Origin: a virus
Length of the DNA: 8,433 nucleotides
Virus genome (UHGV): UHGV-1374310
Direction: 5' to 3' (one strand)
Below are positions 1 to 8,433 of the stretch, piece after piece (the first letter of the stretch is position 1; each line of letters opens with the position of its first letter). The position numbers and the translations under genes are program-made. Under the pieces are notes generated by a model. The model was not told the origin of the DNA, ran no database searches, and saw only the letters and a list, made by a program, of their open reading frames with translations.

Positions 1-2
1 TA

Positions 3-377
3 TCCGACAATAAGAATCCCGAAGAACATCAGAGACATTCCCCAGCCAGTTCCATACCACGAAACCATATCATCGAAAACCAGCCCACCCGTTTCACGAA
101 CTCCGGCAGCTTCCTTAAGAATTGGCTTGAATACCGGAATCAGAAGGGCGATCGCCAGTGGAGCACCCCAGCGAATAAGGCCAGTTTCCATTTTGATCCC
201 GAAAAAGATCCCCGCACCGACAACAAGCAGCCAGACTATCAGGCCAGGCGCAGTTTCCAGTGCTGTTTGCCATTCAACATCGAAAGTTTTCATTAGCCAG
301 GCAACAACTGCCAGACAGAAAGCAAATACGCCTACAACAACCAGTTCAACGCCGCTTGTTTCGTTATTTCTACTCAT
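3..377 (-). CDS. Hypothetical integral membrane protein, C-terminus cut by the window edge (at least 125 aa)
   Basis: Minus-strand ATG at 377-375 preceded by AGGA (6 nt spacing); my translation MSRNNETSGVELVVVGVFAFCLAVVAWLMKTF...GMSLMFFGILIVG has several hydrophobic segments and no stop before position 3. Absent from the ORF track, presumably because it has no in-window stop. Confidence 0.5.
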   Translation of the reverse strand, partial: MSRNNETSGVELVVVGVFAFCLAVVAWLMKTFDVEWQTALETAPGLIVWLLVVGAGIFFGIKMETGLIRWGAPLAIALLIPVFKPILKEAAGVRETGGLVFDDMVSWYGTGWGMSLMFFGILIVG

Positions 378-420
378 CCTTTTGATCCTTTGTTGCTGTT
401 CAAAATCCGCACAATAAAGA

Positions 421-447
421 ACGTGCAGTGTAGGTAATACTGCACGT
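421..447. promoter_or_regulatory. Perfect inverted repeat ACGTGCAGT-9 nt-ACTGCACGT, next to a second 6-bp-arm palindrome GTACCA-TTCG-TGGTAC (450-465); operator or terminator/attenuator
   Basis: Arms 421-429 and 439-447 are exact reverse complements. It lies between the stop of the small minus-strand gene (466) and the start of the membrane-protein gene (377), and on the minus-strand transcript is followed by UCUUUAUU. Confidence 0.4.
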
Positions 448-465
448 TTGTACCATTCGTGGTAC

Positions 466-648
466 TTAATCCTTTTGTTTGGCAGACATGAGATCTTCTG
501 CTGCATCTTTAGAGTAGTTATCAATCAGATAACCTAAAATCTCTGTCCATGTAATTGTTTTTCCTAGTTTTACACTGGCATTTATAGCCAGTCGTTCTAG
601 TTTCATTTTTCTTTCTTCCGTCACGTTATAAGTCGTGCGCTTTGCCAT
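466..648 (-). CDS. Small (60 aa) putative DNA-binding transcriptional regulator, ribbon-helix-helix-like; candidate phage repressor
   Basis: ORF track protein MAKRTTYNVTEERKMKLERLAINASVKLGKTITWTEILGYLIDNY...; size and a strand-helix-helix-like pattern; it sits upstream of and opposite to gII, the position of rstR in CTXphi. SD is weak. Fold assignment is inference. Confidence 0.5.
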   Translation of the reverse strand: MAKRTTYNVTEERKMKLERLAINASVKLGKTITWTEILGYLIDNYSKDAAEDLMSAKQKD

Positions 649-695
649 TTTTTACGCTCGTTCAATGCAATATTTGAAGTGAGTATACATGCTCA

Positions 696-775
696 TGAAC
701 TCATATCATCCAATCCTCTTGAACTCACTAGCTCACTGGTGTAATGTTAAAACACTAATGAACTACTGAACTCAT
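696..775. promoter_or_regulatory. Control region upstream of gII: four direct repeats of TGAACTCA(T/C)/TGAACTAC and a candidate sigma70 promoter
   Basis: TGAACTCAT at 696-704, TGAACTCAC at 720-728, TGAACTACT at 759-767, TGAACTCAT at 767-775. Candidate -35 TTGAAC (719-724) and -10 TAATGT (742-747) with 17-bp spacing; one repeat overlaps the -35. Confidence 0.4.
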
Positions 776-817
776 GTGTTAGTAAGTCATCATTTTTGTA
801 ATTTTGAGGATTTATTC

Positions 818-1870
818 GTGATCGATTGGCTTACCGGGATTTTCCCTTGCACACACAAACCGCTTCCGGCGGGGAGTGTTGTCAGCGTTGATGCTGACGG
901 TGCAATTGAGTGGGAAACCGTTAAGCGACTGACTGTTCGCGGTTCGCATGAAGCAACGATGAAAGTACGATCGATAGGATCTAATGGCGAAGGTAAAGCG
1001 ACACATTTGTACATTGATGGTAATCCTTCCAAGTTTCTGCAGGGGCATTCTGTTGTTGGGTCGGATGATATACAAGGGCTCATGTTGACGGTCTATGCCA
1101 GGATTTTATCCTTATTGAATATTCCTCATGATTTAGCGTCTTATAAAGCCGTTATGGCAGGTCAGTATAAAATTTCACGTATTGACATTAATTACATGTA
1201 TTCATTATCTACGCTGGAAAATGTCAGATCATGGCTTTATGCCGCCGAATTTAAAGCTAAAACACGCCATGGTCGCGCATGTGGGAAAGGCGGTACAGTT
1301 TATTTAGGTAAAAACTCCCGTCGATGGAGTCTGAAATTTTATTCAAAATATGATGAACACGTTTCTGGTAAAAAAGGGCACCAGATAGCCGAAGAGTTTG
1401 TACGAGCCGGGTTACTGGACTGGACGAAAGATAAATTACGTATTGAATTAACATTAAGAACAACTGAGCTTATTGATTTAAATTTAACGCTTGGCGCTAA
1501 CTGGAATATGAAAACACCACGTCAATTATTCTCTGAATATGTAGGGAGAATAGAAATGAATCAGAATGCTATTTTAAGTGATGAAAAAATAACGAAACTG
1601 CCAAGAAAAATACAGTCAACTTATTTACTTTGGAAACAAGGGGCTAACATGAAAGAAATGTTACCTCATAACACTTTTTATCGCCATAGAAGAGAATTGC
1701 TTTCGTTCGGTATCGATATTAATTTCTATTGTGATTCACCAGACTCTAATAACGTTGTTCCGCTAATAAGAACGCTGGAAGCCAAGCCAGCGGAAATCCC
1801 CTTATGGATTTATGAGAAAGGTTTTATTTTCGATTACAACCGTATTTCGCACGCCAGTAGCTGGCATTAA
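818..1870 (+). CDS. gII: Replication initiation protein pII (rolling-circle nickase)
   Basis: Recalled M13 pII aligns: VIDWLTGIFPC vs MIDMLVLRLPF at the N-terminus, KFLQGHSVVG vs KVLQGHNVFG, SRIDINY vs SRIDATF, NNVVPLIR vs NNVVPLVR. Start set at GTG 818 (GAGGA at 806-810, 7 nt spacing); the track's GTG at 776 is an upstream extension. Confidence 0.9.
   Translation: MIDWLTGIFPCTHKPLPAGSVVSVDADGAIEWETVKRLTVRGSHEATMKVRSIGSNGEGKATHLYIDGNPSKFLQGHSVVGSDDIQGLMLTVYARILSLLNIPHDLASYKAVMAGQYKISRIDINYMYSLSTLENVRSWLYAAEFKAKTRHGRACGKGGTVYLGKNSRRWSLKFYSKYDEHVSGKKGHQIAEEFVRAGLLDWTKDKLRIELTLRTTELIDLNLTLGANWNMKTPRQLFSEYVGRIEMNQNAILSDEKITKLPRKIQSTYLLWKQGANMKEMLPHNTFYRHRRELLSFGIDINFYCDSPDSNNVVPLIRTLEAKPAEIPLWIYEKGFIFDYNRISHASSWH
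1508..1870 (+). CDS. gX: pX, in-frame internal initiation product of gII (predicted by analogy with Ff)
   Basis: Internal ATG at 1508 gives a 120-aa C-terminal product; the NNVVPL motif falls at about the same distance from this Met as in M13 pX (111 aa). No strong SD; call is by analogy. Confidence 0.45.
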   Translation: MKTPRQLFSEYVGRIEMNQNAILSDEKITKLPRKIQSTYLLWKQGANMKEMLPHNTFYRHRRELLSFGIDINFYCDSPDSNNVVPLIRTLEAKPAEIPLWIYEKGFIFDYNRISHASSWH

Positions 1871-1881
1871 AGGAAAGTAAT

Positions 1882-2199
1882 ATGTCTAATTATGGTCTTT
1901 TCGTTAAGGGTAAAATGTTGGGAGCCCGCCAACGTAATAAAGTTAATGGTCAGGGCTATTATAATGAAATTGGTATTGGCCTTGAAATACCTGATGGTTT
2001 TGGTGGTACAAAGCAGGATCAAATTATTATTCGAGTTTCTCAGGCTCTCGTTAACGCAGGTCTAATGAACCAGGCGAATGCTTTCATTGGGAAATTAGTT
2101 CAAATTCCTGTCTATGTCCGTGCGTGGTCAATGGAGGGTAGGGAAGGTGTAACTTATAATGTTGCTTCCGATGGTGGCATCGCAGAGATCAAAGGTTAA
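1882..2199 (+). CDS. gV: Single-stranded DNA-binding protein (gV-like, divergent, 105 aa)
   Basis: Position directly after gII with SD AGGAA (1871-1875). Only a short stretch ARQRNKVNGQGYYNEIGIGLE resembles the DNA-binding region of M13 pV (TRSGVSRQGKPYSLNEQLCYVDL) and Pf3 SSB; the rest is not recognisably alignable by eye. Confidence 0.65.
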   Translation: MSNYGLFVKGKMLGARQRNKVNGQGYYNEIGIGLEIPDGFGGTKQDQIIIRVSQALVNAGLMNQANAFIGKLVQIPVYVRAWSMEGREGVTYNVASDGGIAEIKG

Positions 2200-2201
2200 A
2201 T

Positions 2202-2288
2202 ATGGACGATGTTATTCAAATTTTGATAGCGTCTGGCATCGTTATTTCTTTTGGCCTCGGCGCGATTACTGCGGGGGTCTTTCGTTAA
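2202..2288 (+). CDS. gVII: Minor coat protein pVII (28 aa)
   Basis: ATG 2 nt after the gV stop with SD AAAGG; translation MDDVIQILIASGIVISFGLGAITAGVFR resembles M13 pVII (MEQVADFDTIYQAMIQISVVLCFALGIIAGGQR) in size, hydrophobicity and C-terminus. Not in the ORF track because it is too short. Confidence 0.7.
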   Translation: MDDVIQILIASGIVISFGLGAITAGVFR

Positions 2289-2383
2289 TGTATATCGTTT
2301 ATTTCTTCGGGGCTTATACCTTTGGTTTTGCCCTTTTCTATGCGGTCGGTTCATTTAAATCATTTTCTGACCGATTAATGTAA
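2288..2383 (+). CDS. gIX: Minor coat protein pIX (31 aa)
   Basis: ATG overlaps the gVII stop (TAATG); translation MYIVYFFGAYTFGFALFYAVGSFKSFSDRLM matches M13 pIX in size and the ...RLM ending. The track's 2159-2383 ORF is an artefactual extension of this frame. Confidence 0.7.
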   Translation: MYIVYFFGAYTFGFALFYAVGSFKSFSDRLM

Positions 2384-2402
2384 CCTTAATGGAGTTATTC
2401 CT

Positions 2403-2645
2403 ATGAAAATTCTGTCTACTGTTAAATATAAAATTGCTCTGGCTTCAACTGCGCTTTTTATTTCTGCAAGTTCTTTTGCGGCTGAAGGCGCTACAGGTGG
2501 TACTGATTATGCAGGTCAGGCAATGGATGCTTTGTTGACTCAGGCAAATGATCTCATTGGTAAAGTATGGCCTGTTGTTGTTGCTGTGGTTGGCGCTGGG
2601 CTTGCCATTCGTATTTTCAAAAAATTCTCTTCAAAAGCGGTTTGA
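2403..2645 (+). CDS. gVIII: Major coat protein pVIII precursor (IKe-like)
   Basis: 26-aa signal peptide ending SFA then AEG; mature C-terminus ...[26 protein letters not shown] is close to the IKe coat C-terminus (...[11 protein letters not shown]) as recalled. SD GGAG at 2391-2394. Confidence 0.95.
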
Positions 2646-2655
2646 ATTTCACTCA

Positions 2656-2678
2656 GGGGCACTCGTTGCCCCTTTATT
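2656..2678 (+). terminator. Rho-independent terminator after gVIII
   Basis: Stem GGGGCA (2656-2661) / TGCCCC (2667-2672) with loop CTCGT, followed by TTTATT; same position as the strong terminator after gVIII in Ff phages. Confidence 0.7.
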
Positions 2679-2691
2679 AAAGCGGGTTACT

Positions 2692-3951
2692 ATGAGAAGG
2701 AAAATATTAATTCTTTCCGCTGTCCTCATTTCTCCTTTTTCACATGCTGAGTCATGGGAAAGCATTACTAAATCCACTTATCAAAGTTCTGCCTATGCTG
2801 AAAGTAAGCAAATAACCAATCAGGATGGCTCTAAGATAACGGTTTACTATATTGATGCTGCTATGCAGGCCTCCGCTTGTCAGGGTGCTAAATCCAGTGC
2901 TCAGAGTGTATTTACTCGGATTAAACCAACTTATGAGGGTATCTGGCCTGATTCTGAATTCCGTCTTGTTTTTACTGGCGATTGTACTTACAGCGATTCA
3001 CCAGGGCAGAAGGATAAATATTGGTCTTTAACGGCTTATATTGTTGGTAATATTCAGCGTTCTGTTCCTGATGAAAAACCTACTGACCCGACACCAGAAG
3101 AAATTTGTGAAGCGAAGCCGCCAGAAGAAGGTGTATTTAATAATGTTGATTCATATGATGGTGGTCGCTATATCTACTATAACGGCTGTGAATATGAGGC
3201 TACTGGTGTCATTGTTTGTCAGGGTGATGGTACTGTTTGCGCTGCAACATGGAAGCCTACAGGTGCTGTAGCTGACCCCTCTGATAAACCCTCAACCCCC
3301 CAAAATGGTGGTGGTGAGTCCGGTGGTGGTGAGTCCGGTGGTGGTGAGTCTGGCGGTGGTGAGTCCGGTGGCGGTAGTTCTGGCGGTAGTTCTGGCGGTA
3401 GTTCTGGCGGTGGCTCTAGTGGTTCCAGTCTTTCTAAAGGTGATATTCAGTCTGCGATCGAAGGTGCTTCACCCAAAATAGCCAGCGATATTCATGATAA
3501 ATTAACGGAGAAAGACACTTCATCAGATGATAAAAAAAATGCCGATGAACAAACCAGGAATAATATAAATCGTCTTGACGATTCCATTAACAATCTTACG
3601 CGGGGGGCTGGCCGTTTTGCTGACCCTTCAGGTGGTGATTCTCGTTATGGAAAGGGCGACTCTGAATTAGATGGCGCTTCTACTTTAGCTGATTCTGAAT
3701 TGGGAATTGAAAAGGATTCTCACGGTGCTTTATGGGAAGCATTTTTAAATAAAGGTGCTATGCTGCCTAATTTACCCAATGGTAACGGCTGCTCTGATTT
3801 TATTATTTTTCCCGGAGAGGTTTATCAGATTGATATTGGTTGCGATAAATTACTGACTATTAAAGATGTTCTTTCATGGGTTTTTTATTGCCTTACGTTC
3901 TGGTATGTCTTTACTTCTTTAACTTCATTGCTTCGCAAAGGGGGTGAGTGA
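2692..3951 (+). CDS. gIII: Minor coat / adsorption protein pIII
   Basis: Signal peptide [19 protein letters not shown]; internal motif [29 protein letters not shown] resembles the M13 N1 (TolA-binding) motif YEGCLWNATGVVVCTGDETQCYGTWVPIG; glycine-rich linker (GGGES x4 then SSGG units); C-terminal anchor [21 protein letters not shown]...[14 protein letters not shown] resembles the M13 pIII C-terminus. The track's start at 2548 is an N-terminal over-extension. Confidence 0.9.
3307..3429 (+). repeat. In-frame tandem repeats inside gIII (15-bp GGTGGTGGTGAGTCC units, then 12-bp GGCGGTAGTTCT units) encoding the Gly/Ser/Glu linker
   Basis: Directly visible near-identical tandem units with wobble-position variation. 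Confidence 0.85.
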
Positions 3952-4292
3952 TGCCTTTATTATTAGGTATTCCTGCATTGTTGCGTTTTCTTATTGGTCT
4001 TGTTCCTTTGTTTATTGGCTATGTGGCGGTTTTTTTAGCTCGACTTGCTACCAGAACAGGATTAATCGCCTTTGCATTGGTCGCATTAATTACAACAACT
4101 GTTACGCTTTTAATGCAGTACCTTGCTGAGGTCATGTATAACGGTTTACCTGCTGATTTCTCCCATTTAATGGCGTCTGTATTGCCTGACCATTTTCAGG
4201 CGTGTGTTAACGTTATTATGGTTACTCGTATCAGTGTTTTTGTTTTCGATTTAAAACAAAAATTTCTTGATTATGCAAACAGGGTGATTTAA
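3951..4292 (+). CDS. gVI: Minor coat protein pVI
   Basis: ATG overlaps the gIII stop (TGATG); [17 protein letters not shown]... vs M13 MPVLLGIPLLLRFLGFL...; C-terminal ...VFVFDLKQKF resembles M13 ...IFIFDVKQKI. Confidence 0.9.
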   Translation: MPLLLGIPALLRFLIGLVPLFIGYVAVFLARLATRTGLIAFALVALITTTVTLLMQYLAEVMYNGLPADFSHLMASVLPDHFQACVNVIMVTRISVFVFDLKQKFLDYANRVI

Positions 4293-5387
4293 ATGGCGGT
4301 TTATGTAGTAACAGGCAAATTAGGCTCAGGCAAGACACTTGTTAGTGTTTCCAGAATACAGGAAAGACTTGCTAAGGGTTGTCCTGTTGCCACTAATCTT
4401 GATCTTAAATTGCATAATATGCCTATGGTTGGGCGTTATGCGAAAAAAACGCGCGTTATTCGCATTCCTGACAAGCCTTCATTAAATGATTTACTTGCTA
4501 TTGGTATTGGGAATACATCTTACGATGAATCCCGTAATGGCCTCCTTGTACTTGATGAATGTGGTACTTGGTTTAATTCCCGCTCATGGGGTGATAAAGA
4601 CAGACAACCTGTTATTGACTGGTTTTTACATGCCAGAAAATTAGGCTGGGATATTATATTTTTGATTCAGGATATTTCGATAATGGATAAGCAAGCTCGT
4701 CTGGCGCTTGCTGAGCATGTTGTTTATTGTCGCCGTTCAGATAAATTAAACATTCCTTTTGTTGGCTCCATTATGAATTTGGTTTCAGGGGCGAGATTTT
4801 CTTTACCAAAGGTACACTTTGGCATTGTCAAATATGGTGATAATGTTAATTCAATCACTGTTGATAAATGGATATATACAGGAAAATCTCTTTATTCTGC
4901 TTACAATACCAAACAAGCGTTCACAGATAATTATCCTCATGGCGCATTTTCGCTTTTGCCACCATTTATCACGCACGGTCAATTTTCTGTTCACAGAGGA
5001 TTTAATTATTATATGCGCCTCACTAAAATTTATTTTCGCAAATCGAACCGTCTTATATTAATGCTTTCTTTTTTGGCGCTGGGGCTTGCGTTTGGTTTCT
5101 GGCTCCAGTCTGGAAAGAATGTTGATGAAATCTCAGCTATTAAATCTGCTTATGCTGAACAGGCGAGGGCGGTAACGCCTGATTCGTCCAGTGACTTACC
5201 CCGACTTTCTATTAATTCTTTTTCACAACTTGGCTTTGACGTTTCCGTTACGTTTGTTGATGCAAAAGGTATGAAATATCAGTATTTTGATTTGATTAAA
5301 GATGGTTATTCCGTTGATATTAAAGATGCCTGTCGTGTTGTTATTAGAAAAGGCCGTTATTTACAGACTGTTACCTGTCAGGAGTAA
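4293..5387 (+). CDS. gI: Assembly ATPase pI (Zot-like), Walker A GKLGSGKT
   Basis: Strong similarity to recalled M13 pI throughout (MAVYVVTGKLGSGKTLVSV..., LLVLDECGTWFN, IDWFLHARKLGWDIIFL, AEHVVYCRR). ATG follows the gVI stop directly. Confidence 0.95.
   Translation: MAVYVVTGKLGSGKTLVSVSRIQERLAKGCPVATNLDLKLHNMPMVGRYAKKTRVIRIPDKPSLNDLLAIGIGNTSYDESRNGLLVLDECGTWFNSRSWGDKDRQPVIDWFLHARKLGWDIIFLIQDISIMDKQARLALAEHVVYCRRSDKLNIPFVGSIMNLVSGARFSLPKVHFGIVKYGDNVNSITVDKWIYTGKSLYSAYNTKQAFTDNYPHGAFSLLPPFITHGQFSVHRGFNYYMRLTKIYFRKSNRLILMLSFLALGLAFGFWLQSGKNVDEISAIKSAYAEQARAVTPDSSSDLPRLSINSFSQLGFDVSVTFVDAKGMKYQYFDLIKDGYSVDIKDACRVVIRKGRYLQTVTCQE
5013..5387 (+). CDS. gXI: pXI, in-frame internal initiation product of gI (predicted)
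   Basis: Internal Met at codon 241 of pI (MRLTKIYFRK...), the same codon position as the M13 pXI start (MKLTKIYLKK...), just before the transmembrane segment. Confidence 0.5.
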   Translation: MRLTKIYFRKSNRLILMLSFLALGLAFGFWLQSGKNVDEISAIKSAYAEQARAVTPDSSSDLPRLSINSFSQLGFDVSVTFVDAKGMKYQYFDLIKDGYSVDIKDACRVVIRKGRYLQTVTCQE

Positions 5388-5394
5388 TATTATT

Positions 5395-6660
5395 ATGCGC
5401 TCTGTTATTGTTGCTTTTTTATTTGCCTGTTCATTCTGCGTTTCTGCTGAAACTGTTAATTTAAATAATTCATCTGTTCGCTCATTTGTTCAGCGGTATT
5501 CTTCAAAAACTGGCAAGCCTGTTATTGTTAATCCTGATATTAAAGGAAACGTAACCGTATTTAATGCTGATGTTAATCCAACAAATATTGATGATTTCTT
5601 TAAGTCTGTTCTGAATGCTAACGGTTTTGTCATGCTTTCTGGCAATCCTGCGGTAGTCTCTTTGCCGTCTAAATTACCTTCACAGATGGTTTCGGATTCC
5701 GATGATTCTGATAACCAGTCTTATGATACTTTTCCTTCTGAGCCATCTTACCAGCCAGTACCTGTGGCGCTTACGGTCAGAAATTTTAAGCTGACAAAAG
5801 TTAGATCGTCCGATGTTCAGCAACTGATTAAAATTTATCTTGATTCTAATGGTGGTGGTAATGTCGTGGATTATCCAGGCAATAACTCGCTGATTGTTTC
5901 TGCGCCTGACGAGCTGCTGCCGGTTCTGTCCGATTTTATCAATTCTGTGGATGTTGCCCGCGATCAGGTTCTCATTCAGTCGCTGATGTTTGAAACCAGC
6001 TTGTCTGATGGCGTTGATTTATCGTTTGCGGCAGGTTCTGCATCCGGTCATAAGGTTGCGGGGGGCTTTAATACTTCTGCACTGGGTAGCGCTCTTTCTA
6101 CGGCGGGCGGTTCTTTTGGTATTTTTGATGGTAACGTGTTGGCGCTGTCTCTGCGTGCTGTCCAGAGTAATTCACGCTCTAAGGTGATTTCAACGCCGCG
6201 TATTCTTACTCAGTCTGGTCAGACTGGTTACATTTCCGTAGGTAAGAATGTGCCGTTTATCACCGGAAAGGTAACGGGCGAATCTGCCGGGGTAAATAAT
6301 CCGTTTCAGACTATCGAGCGTCATGATGTTGGCGTTTCTCTCAAGGTAACGCCTGTTGTCATGGGTAACGGGCAACTAGTTCTGACTATCGACACTCGCG
6401 CTGATTCAATCAGCAATGATGATCAGGCATCCGATATTATTACTAATCAGCGCCAGATTCAGACGACAGTCCAGATTAAGGATGGTCAGACGTTGTTATT
6501 GGGGGGGCTTATCGATTCATCGTTCAGCAATGCCGAGCGTTCAGTTCCAGTTATAAGTAAAATTCCTCTTATAGGCTGGATTTTCAGTAGCAAGGCAGAC
6601 AGCAATGAACAGCGTATTATGTATATTTTGCTTACAGCACATATCATTCGTCCACTTTGA
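5395..6660 (+). CDS. gIV: Outer-membrane secretin pIV precursor
   Basis: Signal peptide MRSVIVAFLFACSFCVSA; extensive similarity to recalled M13 pIV (LDFSFAAGS, GGSFGIF, PRILT.SGQ.G.ISVG.NVPFITG.VTGESA.VNNPFQTIER, TNQR.I.TTV...DGQTLLLGGL, SKIPLIG). SD AGGAG at 5380-5384. The track's start at 5302 is an over-extension overlapping gI. Confidence 0.95.
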   Translation: MRSVIVAFLFACSFCVSAETVNLNNSSVRSFVQRYSSKTGKPVIVNPDIKGNVTVFNADVNPTNIDDFFKSVLNANGFVMLSGNPAVVSLPSKLPSQMVSDSDDSDNQSYDTFPSEPSYQPVPVALTVRNFKLTKVRSSDVQQLIKIYLDSNGGGNVVDYPGNNSLIVSAPDELLPVLSDFINSVDVARDQVLIQSLMFETSLSDGVDLSFAAGSASGHKVAGGFNTSALGSALSTAGGSFGIFDGNVLALSLRAVQSNSRSKVISTPRILTQSGQTGYISVGKNVPFITGKVTGESAGVNNPFQTIERHDVGVSLKVTPVVMGNGQLVLTIDTRADSISNDDQASDIITNQRQIQTTVQIKDGQTLLLGGLIDSSFSNAERSVPVISKIPLIGWIFSSKADSNEQRIMYILLTAHIIRPL

Positions 6661-6703
6661 TGGATAGCGGGTAGGTGCGTGAGCCCTGCTCGCTATCCAT
6701 CAA
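6657..6703 (+). terminator. 13-bp-stem hairpin overlapping the gIV stop: terminator and/or packaging-signal-like element
   Basis: TTGATGGATAGCG (6657-6669) and CGCTATCCATCAA (6691-6703) are exact reverse complements with a 21-nt loop. Ff phages have the packaging-signal hairpin, which also acts as a terminator, in this position after gIV. No T-run follows. Confidence 0.5.
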
Positions 6704-6729
6704 ATGGACATTATTGATTGGGGTAACTA

Positions 6730-7038
6730 ATGGATTCTTATGGGATTTTATCTGCTCTGGCAGAACGAACGATTACAGCGGAAGAAGCAAAAACAATGAC
6801 ACTTGCAGCCAGAAGTTCTTCGGCTCAGGTAAATGAAGCATCACTTGCTCTGTTACTGATTGATAATACTCTGGATGCGATCAAAGCAGCTGCCAGTGAA
6901 GGGAAAGGATACACTTTACTTCCTTCTTATGAGATTTCTGTAAAAGCCATTGATTTAGCAGAAGAATTTTTAAGGAAACAATGCGGCTATGTTATTGATA
7001 ACCAGAATGGCGTAAGGACGGTCTATTGGTTTATATGA
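6730..7038 (+). CDS. Hypothetical protein (102 aa), accessory/cargo gene with no recognised family
   Basis: ORF track protein MDSYGILSALAERTITAEEAKTMTLAARSS...; starts about 27 nt after the hairpin; weak SD. Confidence 0.45.
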   Translation: MDSYGILSALAERTITAEEAKTMTLAARSSSAQVNEASLALLLIDNTLDAIKAAASEGKGYTLLPSYEISVKAIDLAEEFLRKQCGYVIDNQNGVRTVYWFI

Positions 7039-7155
7039 TAACCCCGGACAATGACAAAACTTGCTTTTGTTAGTGTCAGGGGTTGGCCAAGCCGAACAAT
7101 TCTGTTTTTTTAGCGTTATTGCTGATTCGGCGCGGCAGCATTACGAGGAGATAAA

Positions 7156-7389
7156 ATGCAATTTTTCACATCCAGCGATACTGTAATGTTATGTGCGAAG
7201 ACCTGCGATCGCTGTGGTCGCCATGCGAAGACGGTGGTAGATGACATTGAGTTCAATGAGTTTCTGTCTGTTAATCACTTAGCTGGATACGGTTCAATTT
7301 TTGGTGACAGTAATCGCTTAAAACTGGATTTATGCCAACATTGCCTGAAAGACGTCCTGGGCCAGTGGATTACGGTCTGTGACCAATGA
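7156..7389 (+). CDS. Hypothetical small zinc-ribbon protein (77 aa; CxxC...CxxC), accessory/cargo gene
   Basis: Strong SD GAGGAG 6 nt before the ATG; Cys pairs CDRC (near the N-terminus) and CQHC (near the C-terminus). Confidence 0.6.
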   Translation: MQFFTSSDTVMLCAKTCDRCGRHAKTVVDDIEFNEFLSVNHLAGYGSIFGDSNRLKLDLCQHCLKDVLGQWITVCDQ

Positions 7390-7427
7390 CGGCACCGGTA
7401 ACGCCAGTTCCCGCCATCCTTACCATT

Positions 7428-7460
7428 GGTGCGCATAATGTAGGACTCGTTATGTTGAAA
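7428..7460 (+). other. dif-like XerC/XerD recombination site with an extended 11-bp central region (candidate attP half-site 1)
   Basis: GGTGCGCATAA-TGTAGGACTCG-TTATGTTGAAA versus recalled E. coli dif GGTGCGCATAA-TGTATA-TTATGTTAAAT: XerC arm 11/11 plus the next 4 nt identical, XerD arm 9/11. Confidence 0.6.
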
Positions 7461-7494
7461 AGGCCGCTGCGAAAATCGAATCCCGCAGCGGCCT
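7461..7494. terminator. 11-bp-stem hairpin between the two dif-like sites; likely bidirectional terminator for the convergent gene blocks and apex of the putative attP fold
   Basis: AGGCCGCTGCG (7461-7471) and CGCAGCGGCCT (7484-7494) are exact reverse complements with a 12-nt loop; on the minus-strand transcript the stem is followed by UUUUCAACAUAAC. Lies between convergent genes ending at 7389 and 7537. Confidence 0.6.
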
Positions 7495-7521
7495 CTTTAG
7501 CATAACGTCATTGTGCGAACC
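7495..7521 (-). other. Second, inverted dif-like site (candidate attP half-site 2)
   Basis: Reverse complement of 7495-7521 reads GGTTCGCACAA-TGACG-TTATGCTAAAG: XerC-like arm 9/11 and XerD-like arm 9/11 to recalled dif, 5-nt centre; opposite orientation to site 1. Confidence 0.5.
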
Positions 7522-7536
7522 AAAATCTTTTAGATT

Positions 7537-7728
7537 TTATTTTCCGCAAGCAGGGCAGACGTTTGCATCACCAAATTGCATTGTAGTGCTTTTATTCACA
7601 CTAAAACTTTCGAATCCTTCACGTAAGGATTTTTTTTCACCATTAAAAAGATATGTTGTAAATTCTTTTTTCTCCGCATCAGTCAATTGAAGCCAGAGAG
7701 CTTTGACTTGATCTACTTTATAACTCAT
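7537..7728 (-). CDS. Hypothetical small protein (about 63 aa) ending in CPACGK; second gene of a minus-strand accessory pair
   Basis: Start chosen at the internal ATG (MSYKVDQVK...) because AAGGAG sits 6 nt upstream and overlaps the stop of the preceding gene; the track's longer form from 7770 would overlap that gene by 31 nt. Confidence 0.5.
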   Translation of the reverse strand: MSYKVDQVKALWLQLTDAEKKEFTTYLFNGEKKSLREGFESFSVNKSTTMQFGDANVCPACGK

Positions 7729-7739
7729 TTGTTTCTCCT

Positions 7740-8315
7740 TTATTTCACGAGATTGCCACAATTTGTGCAACCTTTCCGCTTGTTAAATTTAGTCGGTATT
7801 TTATTGCAACGTACGCATTCTTTATTTTTCTTTACCAGAATGTCGAACATAATCCGTTTCTTATCATTATTGCTAACATATTTTTCATCTTCCTTGGCAT
7901 TGAAGTCATCTTTTGATTTTATCACTGAAAACAAATGGTTAGCGGGTTGCTGGTTGCCTGTCTTTGATTTAAACATGCTCGACAGTTCGCCATACAAATC
8001 AGTTAGGAGTTTATTGAAAGAGTATGATTCCAGATATCGAGATAAATTTTCATCAGTCTTCATGACCAGCGTGTATAAATTAGAAAGCAAGACTATCACT
8101 GATAATATCCCTGTGCCCCAAACTAAAAAATCAAAATATTTGGAGCTGTGATCAACCGATGCGTATCCTCCAACTAGGACAGGGAGGGCAAATGATAGAT
8201 ATTGGTTTATTTTTAAAAGTCGTTCGCTTTTTTTGATTTTAGTTTTTAAGTAGTCAGCTGTTCCCTCTGCGTAAAATTTCCTGAGGTCCATTTCTTCATT
8301 CGGTTGCATACTCAT
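7740..8315 (-). CDS. Hypothetical 2-TM membrane protein with C-terminal C4 zinc ribbon (about 191 aa); candidate toxin, exclusion or defence effector
   Basis: ORF track 7740-8321 (GTG); I prefer the ATG at 8315 (AGGTG upstream). Two hydrophobic helices (LSFALPVLVGGYASV, LVWGTGILSVIVLLSNLYTLV), then a charged region ending CVRC...CTNC. Visibly AT-rich. The opposite-strand ORF 7687-8151 looks like a shadow. Confidence 0.6.
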   Translation of the reverse strand: MSMQPNEEMDLRKFYAEGTADYLKTKIKKSERLLKINQYLSFALPVLVGGYASVDHSSKYFDFLVWGTGILSVIVLLSNLYTLVMKTDENLSRYLESYSFNKLLTDLYGELSSMFKSKTGNQQPANHLFSVIKSKDDFNAKEDEKYVSNNDKKRIMFDILVKKNKECVRCNKIPTKFNKRKGCTNCGNLVK

Positions 8316-8433
8316 CTTCACCTTTCACAATATCAAACTAGCGCGGGCTGAAATTATAAAAAACCTGTAAATTCAAGTGATTGACATTCACCAATAATAT
8401 GAATTCCTTCTGTGCCACCAATAAAGCAGACCG

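Follow-up and report, generated by a model that had tools for sequence, protein, structure and literature searches.

A complete circular phage genome

The window, by which we mean the whole stretch of 8,433 nt analysed here (UHGV-1374310), very likely represents one unit genome, no more and no less, of a temperate filamentous phage (UPφ group, Inoviridae), the circle having been opened inside a 140-aa membrane-protein gene; we put the probability of this reading at roughly 93%. A complete circular inovirus genome had been suggested in a preceding sequence-only reading, and the suggestion is upheld by conservation of the junction between the window ends in related loci, by one-HSP alignments to single prophages and by a closed attP join. 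The size of 8433 bp is, as had been supposed, in the range of filamentous phages (IKe 6883 bp, I2-2 6744 bp, Ypfφ 8.7 kb; PMC4266046). The features of the window are listed in Table 1.

Table 1. Genes and sequence elements of the window, in order of position
Feature	Position	Strand	Basis
Membrane-protein gene, N-terminal 125 codons + 2 bases	1-377	-	Four hydrophobic segments; phrog_4174; cut by window ends
Perfect 12-bp hairpin between regulator and membrane-protein genes	420-448		Likeness to I2-2 intergenic region
60-aa small protein at repressor position	466-648	-	phrog_2503
Divergent control region, regulator gene to gene II	649-817		Gene II start annotation
Gene II, rolling-circle replication initiator	818-1870	+	Phage_CRI E 8.8e-70, G2P_X_C E 2.1e-29
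Gene V, ssDNA-binding protein	1882-2199	+	PF17426, E 8.3e-51
Gene VII, minor coat protein	2202-2288	+	70% aa identity to IKe, annotation
Gene IX, minor coat protein	2288-2383	+	57% aa identity to IKe, annotation
Gene VIII, major coat protein	2403-2645	+	60% to IKe, annotation
Gene III, attachment protein	2692-3951	+	51% to IKe; GGGES/GGS repeat 3291-3405
Gene VI, minor coat protein	3951-4292	+	DUF5455, 52% to IKe
Gene I, Zot-type assembly ATPase	4293-5387	+	66% to IKe, annotation
Gene IV, secretin	5395-6660	+	71% to IKe, 73% to I2-2
Packaging-signal (morphogenetic signal) hairpin	6650-6709	+	Overlaps gene IV stop
102-aa accessory protein, phrog_4115	6730-7038	+	PHROGs match
77-aa Cys-rich accessory protein, phrog_5435	7156-7389	+	PHROGs match
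attP, two inverted dif-like sites, forked hairpin	7426-7523	+	Fold, site match, prophage-end comparison
63-aa cargo protein	7537-7728	-	Annotation in related prophages
191-aa cargo protein, mobilome CxxCx(11)CxxC family	7740-8315	-	TIGR04402 E 1.1e-41; PF27874
Membrane-protein gene, last 15 codons + TGA	8388-8433	-	ORF closure, junction comparison

A minus-strand ORF begins at an ATG (377-375) and its frame leaves the window at position 1. When base 8433 is joined to base 1, the frame continues for 15 codons to a TGA at 8390-8388, exactly as the sequence-only reading had claimed, giving a protein of 140 aa that reads ...GILIVG/YGLLYWWHRRNSYYW across the join (slash). The same reading had called this closure statistically weak, which agrees with the chance of about 0.49 that 15 codons stay open, (61/64)^15; because these odds are close to those of a coin flip, proof of closure has to come from external comparison. 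As shadows of this membrane-protein ORF, half of the six frames (three) stay open across the join for over 100 aa. The 140-aa protein matches phrog_4174, a profile of 140 positions, over residues 1-140 of 140 (E 1.5e-85), the same 423-nt gene is present in E. coli C10 (RefSeq WP_052938190.1), and the gene is likewise annotated as 423 nt long in UM146. Comparison with related genomes, which had been recommended as a check, found the 8433/1 junction uninterrupted and gapless in 34 of the 35 related loci fetched. The 15-residue C-terminal tail is conserved in 34 loci, with R/K and Y/H changes only, even where nucleotide identity across the join falls to about 80%, and homology to related phages with other cargo ends at 8386-8390. 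No terminal overlap was found in the window or in short related contigs, including a high-coverage Izhakiella contig of 8271 bp (L039). An exact search for the 38-nt junction in viral contigs returned no matches, which is uninformative because the 23 related viral contigs used for comparison all lack this cargo.

Contiguity from 8433 to 1 is not in itself diagnostic of a circle, since the join is intragenic and would be contiguous even in a single integrated prophage; what is diagnostic of the circular unit is the attP join (7408-7450). The refutation named earlier, host genes flanking either end, cannot apply either because both ends lie inside the phage. When the window is rotated to start at 7428, five single prophages (L028, L029, L033, L034 and L035) each align to it as one HSP of 8446-8452 nt with 99.2-99.4% identity, the sole indel relative to L028 being 12 nt in the glycine repeat of gene III, and integrated copies correspond to this circle cut at 7428-7442. 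The near-even odds of 15 open codons and the absence of a terminal repeat might suggest that the window is instead a fragment of one integrated prophage, lacking its flanks and closing in frame by coincidence. However, single prophages are interrupted at 7428-7442 and bordered there by host DNA at either end, whereas the window has a closed attP join and intragenic ends; this, the full-length one-HSP alignments with nothing lacking and nothing added, and the conservation of the junction and of the C-terminal tail in 34 loci refute the fragment reading, which is almost certainly wrong.

attP and the prophage ends

The attP hairpin region postulated earlier proved to be real, a forked hairpin of 98 nt made of two inverted dif-like sites (ΔG -31.3, z -7.9). 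attP1 comprises GGTGCGCATAA (7428-7438), an 11-nt spacer and TTATGTTGAAA (7450-7460), and attP2 lies on the other hairpin arm (7495-7521). The minus-strand fold is nearly as stable (-28.2) and computation therefore does not pick the active strand. In Rosenbergiella the hairpin carries one compensatory change from G-C to A-T. The arrangement of its sites marks attP as CTXφ-type, and no integrase family was matched by any of the 15 annotated ORFs (each covered by an assignment or a family search, 10 via Pfam/PHROGs, four more via NCBIfam and gVIII via homology and annotation).

The crossover core at 7428-7442, GGTGCGCATAATGTA, consists of the XerC arm and 4 nt of dif, and the prophage ends map there. 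There is no full dif in the window, where the best match to the 28-nt site is 20/28 at 7428, because only the XerC arm and TGTA are retained. Near-identical prophages are inserted at the chromosomal dif with an intact dif regenerated 3' and a hybrid site 5', the outer left end reading non-phage sequence (host or another dif-inserted element)/core/GGACTCG and the outer right end ...CCATT/full dif/host. The window instead reads TTCCCGCCATCCTTACCATT/GGTGCGCATAATGTA/GGACTCG, that is, phage right end, core and phage left end, which is identical to the junctions between copies in tandem arrays (L001, L026, L027, L030 and L031). As this closed attP join is otherwise seen only between tandem copies, the window is without host DNA. 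The bacterium carrying loci L026-L029 and L033-L035 might be Salmonella enterica, judging by a PhoPQ-related flank and the style of the accessions.

Tandem arrays of the phage were found in four genomes, and a free replicative form or virion and a tandem prophage array collapsed by an assembler are indistinguishable from sequence alone. The unit could thus be complete but have its source in a chromosomal tandem array at dif, either collapsed by a short-read assembler or cut to one period by a database pipeline, to which we give slightly less than an even chance. Arrays of this very phage are common (see also PMC7307601, section 4.2), their inter-copy junction is identical to window positions 7408-7450, and in 265 collection blocks the longest contig with the exact cargo protein measures 5-10 kb, as expected of collapsed repeats. 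Yet no sequence feature separates an array from a replicative form, and Ypfφ and UPφ901 are known to be extrachromosomal or shed (PMC4266046; PMC7307601). An array origin would be compatible with the window being one complete, circularly permuted genome.

Core genes, packaging signal and control region

The Ff-type core genes II, V, VII, IX, VIII, III, VI, I and IV are all present in that order on one strand. The product of gene II has 56% aa identity to I2-2 gII, and the GGGES/GGS repeat of gene III is the sole source of length variation between copies. At its tip the packaging hairpin (ΔG -24.5, z -7.3) shares 91% identity over 22 nt with the morphogenetic signal annotated in IKe, which has the same orientation, and 87% over 30 nt with that of I2-2. 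Rfam and tRNA scans of the window were empty. It is very unlikely that we are dealing with a defective or satellite element (RS1- or TLC-like) rather than an autonomous phage: although Shapiro and Putonti could not obtain new infections with UPφ901 (PMC7307601), each of the nine core genes is full length and intact when compared with IKe and I2-2, the window has the packaging hairpin, and the UPφ901 DNA that is shed resists DNase (PMC7307601).

Two divergent blocks converge on the attP hairpin, as in the sequence-only reading, but the control region between them, which had been placed at 649-775, extends to 817 because the most likely start of gene II is GTG 818, preceded by GAGGA (806-810), as annotated in near-identical prophages; the longest gene II ORF begins at 776. 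The control region has one weak promoter-like site on the minus strand (709-682). A promoter/terminator scan yielded 7 promoter-like sites against 20 expected and is therefore not informative. The position of the 60-aa protein suggests a regulatory role. The hairpin at 420-448 could act either as a terminator or as an origin element, and a 34-nt stretch there is 94% identical to part of the intergenic region of phage I2-2, which retains a relic of the regulator as well as of this hairpin.

Relationship to other filamentous phages

The phage belongs to the published UPφ viruses, with identity gauged via the ECONIH2 prophage (PMC7307601). In UPφ viruses, IKe-like morphogenesis genes occur together with a replication module of Ypfφ/I2-2 type and a slot for variable cargo (PMC7307601). 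In the window, an IKe/I2-2-like morphogenesis module is joined with Ypfφ-type gII and gV, and positions 1-7523 are 98.4% identical to the E. coli ECONIH2 prophage (CP014667, a tandem triple) and 98.9-99.4% identical to most other E. coli prophages compared. Two genes after gIV, GGGES variation in g3p, tandem arrays, and reverse ORFs adjoining dif, with a variable pair, are further points of likeness. The UPφ paper mentions "a copy of the dif site" (Shapiro & Putonti, 2020; PMC7307601) but contains no description of the forked-hairpin attP or of the circular unit. Megablast against deposited phage genomes matched nothing beyond short parts of gene IV in IKe and Erwinia PEar phages, indicating that UPφ is absent as a phage record from that collection.

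The Lineavirus phages IKe and I2-2, which are specific for IncN and IncI2 pili respectively, have the same gene order as the window and a homologous packaging-hairpin tip, but are non-integrating and have neither attP nor the membrane protein, no intact regulator and no cargo. Relative to them the window has about 3.7 kb extra (6710-418), and IKe gII is only ~25% identical to that of the window.

CUS-1 (E. coli O18:K1:H7) and Ypfφ (Yersinia pestis) integrate at dif, have inverted XerC/XerD sites and an intact dif at the 3' end, and Ypfφ occurs in 2-4 tandem copies (PMC4266046). The divergent layout, variable ORF pairs by attL and tandem arrays are common to these phages and the window (PMC4266046). 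Loci L009, L014 and L019, assigned to the CUS-1/Ypfφ type from the published pattern rather than from a reference sequence, share with the window the membrane protein (97-98%), gII (86%), gV (93%) and the attP hairpin, but differ in their regulator and in having unrelated morphogenesis genes (gIV 27%, others no match). Membership of CUS-1/Ypfφ was rejected, as nucleotide identity of ~99% over the 7.1-kb core was not found against loci so typed.

In CTXφ of Vibrio cholerae, two inverted dif-like sites form a forked hairpin on ssDNA, and the integrated prophage is bounded by a hybrid left site and a regenerated right dif, a model that has been extended to CUS-1 and Ypfφ (PMC3089051). The window phage resembles CTXφ in its tandem arrays and in the cargo adjoining the att sites (PMC3089051), whereas its attP hairpin is shorter (~98 nt compared with ~150 nt), its target is the enterobacterial dif, its cargo and structural genes are unrelated and it encodes its own secretin. 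With inverted dif-like sites, insertion at dif and no phage recombinase, it fits a CTX-type IMEX, for which XerC-only exchange is predicted.

Accessory and cargo genes

The 102-aa and 77-aa accessory proteins are probably h1 and h2 of UPφ, respectively (PMC7307601), given their position and the use of ECONIH2 in that paper; the same two genes are present in ECONIH2 and UM146. For these two proteins, searches of Pfam, NCBIfam and PADLOC gave only sub-threshold matches, in Pfam. Neither the membrane protein nor the regulator nor the 63-aa cargo protein had any match in these searches, and the 63-aa protein had no family match in PHROGs either.

The cargo pair at 7524-8386 (mob_CxxC_CxxC and the 63-aa protein) is unlike the cargo modules of the other loci fetched; it occurs in one of 5426 complete E. 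coli genomes and is common elsewhere (1121 collection blocks). Across 38 copies, the slot at 7523-8388 is either empty (9 nt) or occupied by one of at least 10 unrelated modules (400-1230 bp), the copies diverging precisely from the end of the attP2 XerC arm. On 441 plasmids, 393 of which are conjugative, there is a diverged hairpin-plus-cargo relic (STM4504/CBY_0614 family). The slot, from the attP2 end (7523) to the membrane-protein stop (8388), might conceivably be a site-anchored cassette position, the cargo being swapped and occasionally exported to plasmids via Xer/hairpin-dependent recombination at attP2, but we consider this speculative and rather unlikely. Alternatively, cargo variation may arise by homologous recombination or by hybrid-phage formation from mixed tandem arrays.

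Proposed integration and replication cycle

By analogy with the CTXφ/Ypfφ model, the packaged plus strand would fold at 7426-7523 into a forked hairpin mimicking dif, host XerC would exchange one pair of strands between the hairpin and the chromosomal dif, and replication would fix the prophage between a hybrid left site and an intact right dif. A double-strand Xer reaction predicts the same prophage ends, the sole counter-argument being the attP1 spacer of 11 nt instead of 6. Since double-stranded prophage DNA has no hairpin site, new circles would probably be produced by gene II rolling-circle replication between the putative origins of successive tandem copies, which would account for the frequency of tandem arrays.

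The biology of dif-integrating, tandemly arrayed filamentous prophages with variable cargo is already documented for CTXφ, Ypfφ, CUS-1 and UPφ. For this member the annotation is settled, as a complete, circularly permuted inovirus genome without host DNA, with the membrane-protein gene running across artificial ends and attP at 7426-7523.

Gene content and relatives

On sequence grounds the window is that of an inovirus, carrying a morphogenesis block on the plus strand and minus-strand genes on both sides of it (see table). The morphogenetic signal of IKe has a counterpart, in identical orientation, in the packaging hairpin at 6650-6709, indicating that the plus strand of the window is the viral strand.

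Features of the window (positions on the 8,433-nt stretch) and of compared loci (L numbers, positions on the fetched locus)
Feature	Position	Strand	Remarks
140-aa membrane protein	377, across the 8433 to 1 join, to 8388	-	phrog_4174
60-aa protein	648-466	-	
Gene II	818-1870	+	Phage_CRI E 8.8e-70, G2P_X_C E 2.1e-29
Gene V		+	between gene II and genes VII/IX
Genes VII and IX		+	after gene V
Gene VIII		+	after genes VII and IX
Gene III		+	after gene VIII; GGGES/GGS repeat
Gene VI		+	DUF5455
Gene I		+	Zot-type
Gene IV		+	secretin
Small ORF	6730-7038	+	function unknown; downstream of gene IV
Small ORF	7156-7389	+	function unknown; downstream of 6730-7038 ORF
191-aa mobilome CxxCx(11)CxxC protein		-	TIGR04402, E 1.1e-41
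63-aa protein		-	cargo
Plasmid hairpin loci	L046 3001-4013; L047 3001-4013; L048 2524-3529		
Ends of other dif-inserted elements	L001 1550 and 4995; L005; L010; L030 1744		

The window belongs to a known phage group with known biology, and agrees with the UPφ viruses as described by Shapiro and Putonti (PMC7307601), which combine IKe/I2-2-like structural genes with Ypfφ-like gII and gV, have two unknown genes past gIV and reverse ORFs by dif (two of them variable), and display GGGES repeat variation and tandem arrays (PMC7307601). ECONIH2, the case-study strain of that paper (PMC7307601), carries a match (H28) 98.4% identical to window 1-7523. Amino acid identity to IKe is 51-71% for the morphogenesis genes but ~25% for gII, whereas I2-2 reaches 56% for gII and 73% for g4. 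Some loci pair a related gII (86% identity), gV (93%) and membrane protein (97-98%) with unrelated structural genes, which fits the published contrast between UPφ and Ypfφ/CUS-1.

One complete phage unit

A complete circular genome had been proposed in the sequence-only reading from a minus-strand ORF that begins with ATG at 377-375 and stays open to position 1. We reproduced its closure exactly; joining 8433 to 1 adds 15 codons (YGLLYWWHRRNSYYW) before a TGA at 8390-8388, giving a 140-aa product with four hydrophobic segments. As that reading had cautioned, in-frame closure taken alone is weak evidence for circularity, the chance of 15 consecutive sense codons being ~(61/64)^15 = 0.49, and three frames out of six, shadows of the one membrane-protein ORF, read through the join for >100 aa. 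Comparison of the window ends revealed no terminal repeat.

Related inovirus genomes, proposed earlier as a check, bear the closure out. E. coli genomes, IMG/VR and NCBI assemblies supplied 35 loci, of which 34 have an unbroken join and one ends at a contig edge; GTDB representative genomes, outside this count, also contain the full gene. The closed protein covers the phrog_4174 profile in full (140/140 positions, E 1.5e-85), and its 15-residue tail is kept with R/K and Y/H changes only, even at ~80% nucleotide identity. The head-to-tail tandem array of E. coli C10 aligns twice without gaps to the 400 nt around the join (99%), and RefSeq annotates a 423-nt gene across the equivalent position. 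In phages with other cargo, homology to the window ends at 8386-8390, directly past the membrane-protein stop codon.

Five single prophages (L028, L029, L033, L034 and L035) each align to the window rotated to 7428 in a single HSP (8446-8452 nt, 99.2-99.4% identity) which, with the join contiguous elsewhere, supports a complete circular genome; judged from these alignments, the window is exactly one phage unit. The sole indel in L028 is 12 nt in the glycine repeat of gene III, and tandem-array periods are 8411 and 8490 nt versus 8433 nt for the window, the indels mapped in array copies falling mostly in the same repeat. This GGGES/GGS repeat (3291-3405, 15-nt period) is the main source of length difference among near-identical copies, with indels of 12-24 nt at 3388-3400; the surplus length of E. 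coli C10 also maps within the 3307-3413 overlap, and exceptions are small indels elsewhere in some copies.

Integration at dif

Prophage ends map to 7428-7442 (GGTGCGCATAATGTA), a core comprising the XerC arm of E. coli dif and the initial 4 nt of the dif central region. Right ends read ...CCATT, followed by an exact 28-nt dif and host DNA, and left ends consist of non-phage sequence (host or another dif-inserted element), the core and then GGACTCG... The window instead reads ...TTCCCGCCATCCTTACCATT/GGTGCGCATAATGTA/GGACTCG..., the phage right end fused to the left one. Exactly this join occurs where one copy meets the next in the tandem arrays of four genomes. Only a circle, or neighbouring copies of an array, can give such a closed attP join, and the window is therefore without host DNA. 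Either a collapsed array of tandem copies or free phage DNA (replicative form or virion) may have been its physical source. The PCR across 8433 to 1 proposed earlier is uninformative here, since every form contains that join; the diagnostic join is attP, which by itself, without nuclease-protected or long-read DNA, leaves circles and arrays unseparated.

The attP region (7426-7523) holds two inverted dif-like sites. The first, attP1, is GGTGCGCATAA, an 11-nt spacer and TTATGTTGAAA; the other hairpin arm is the complement of GGTTCGCACAA, a 5-nt spacer and TTATGCTAAAG. The predicted plus-strand fold is a forked hairpin (ΔG -31.3 kcal/mol, z -7.9, 0/200 shuffles equally good) whose internal loop, located at the central region, is asymmetric. 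The minus strand folds almost equally well (-28.2), and the active strand is therefore one that we infer. In a Rosenbergiella relative, one stem pair is changed from G-C to A-T, a compensatory substitution. This is a CTX-type attP; integration through a single-stranded DNA hairpin is established for CTXφ and has been proposed for CUS-1 and Ypfφ (PMC3089051, PMC4266046). If XerC exchanged top strands between dif and the plus-strand hairpin, exactly the left and right junctions observed would result. A double-strand Xer reaction would give an identical product, but attP1 by itself, with its 11-nt spacer, is probably no normal Xer site. The circle would be regenerated by rolling-circle replication from two origins in series, a CTX-type requirement with which the tandem arrays agree.

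Many prophage arrays are bordered on the left by the end of a different dif-inserted element (ATTCTTCCTTGGTTTATATT/GGTGCGCATAATGT...), which means that several Xer-dependent elements are stacked at dif. The L030/L031 array (UGBE01000003.1) shows decay of arrayed copies: IS1 interrupts the gene for the 63-aa cargo protein in one of them, and genes II and I are frameshifted or split in its copies. In the RefSeq record of E. coli UM146, a run of N directly left of the prophage (L002 4940-5010) covers what looks like a degenerate phage right-end copy, and hipA at this run carries a pseudogene flag for its excess of ambiguous residues. A Candidatus Nanosynbacter MAG contig (L036, JARKOR010000214.1) carries this enterobacterial prophage with E. 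coli-type dif flanks; the contig is almost certainly a binning contaminant.

A variable cargo slot

Across 38 copies (L002-L041), the slot between attP2 and the membrane-protein stop codon (7524-8387) holds at least 10 unrelated cargo modules of 400-1230 bp; L022 and L023 have an empty slot of 9 nt. Copies start to diverge exactly past ...TGTGCGAACCAA, the XerC arm of attP2. Among 5426 complete E. coli genomes, one contains the cargo module of the window (7524-8386), and none of the plasmids searched does. The exact 191-aa protein occurs in 1121 blocks of a large collection, beside the same phage; flanks at most of these loci are not E. coli, and we suspect the host to be Salmonella enterica.

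The inner attP hairpin and attP2 (7451-7522) match 441 plasmid records at 90-95%, of which 393 are conjugative, mostly IncF E. coli plasmids. These copies lack attP1 and adjoin a STM4504/CBY_0614-family gene between IS elements; in E. coli CP062855 a gene of this family occupies the phage slot (69% nucleotide identity over 824 nt). The plasmid hairpin and gene are apparently left over from a related dif element.

Possible relics of integration in I2-2

The conserved hairpin at 420-448 may be an origin element or a terminator. The I2-2 intergenic region (L045) is collinear with the window less a 3.7-kb block, and contains a 34-nt, 94% identical copy of the hairpin stretch 419-451 (2666-2699) and a relic of the 60-aa putative regulator (2799-2903; 43% over 35 aa, E 2e-5). 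I2-2 is a non-integrating phage, yet it retains relics of the regulator and hairpin of the window, which supports the descent of I2-2 and IKe from an integrating ancestor.
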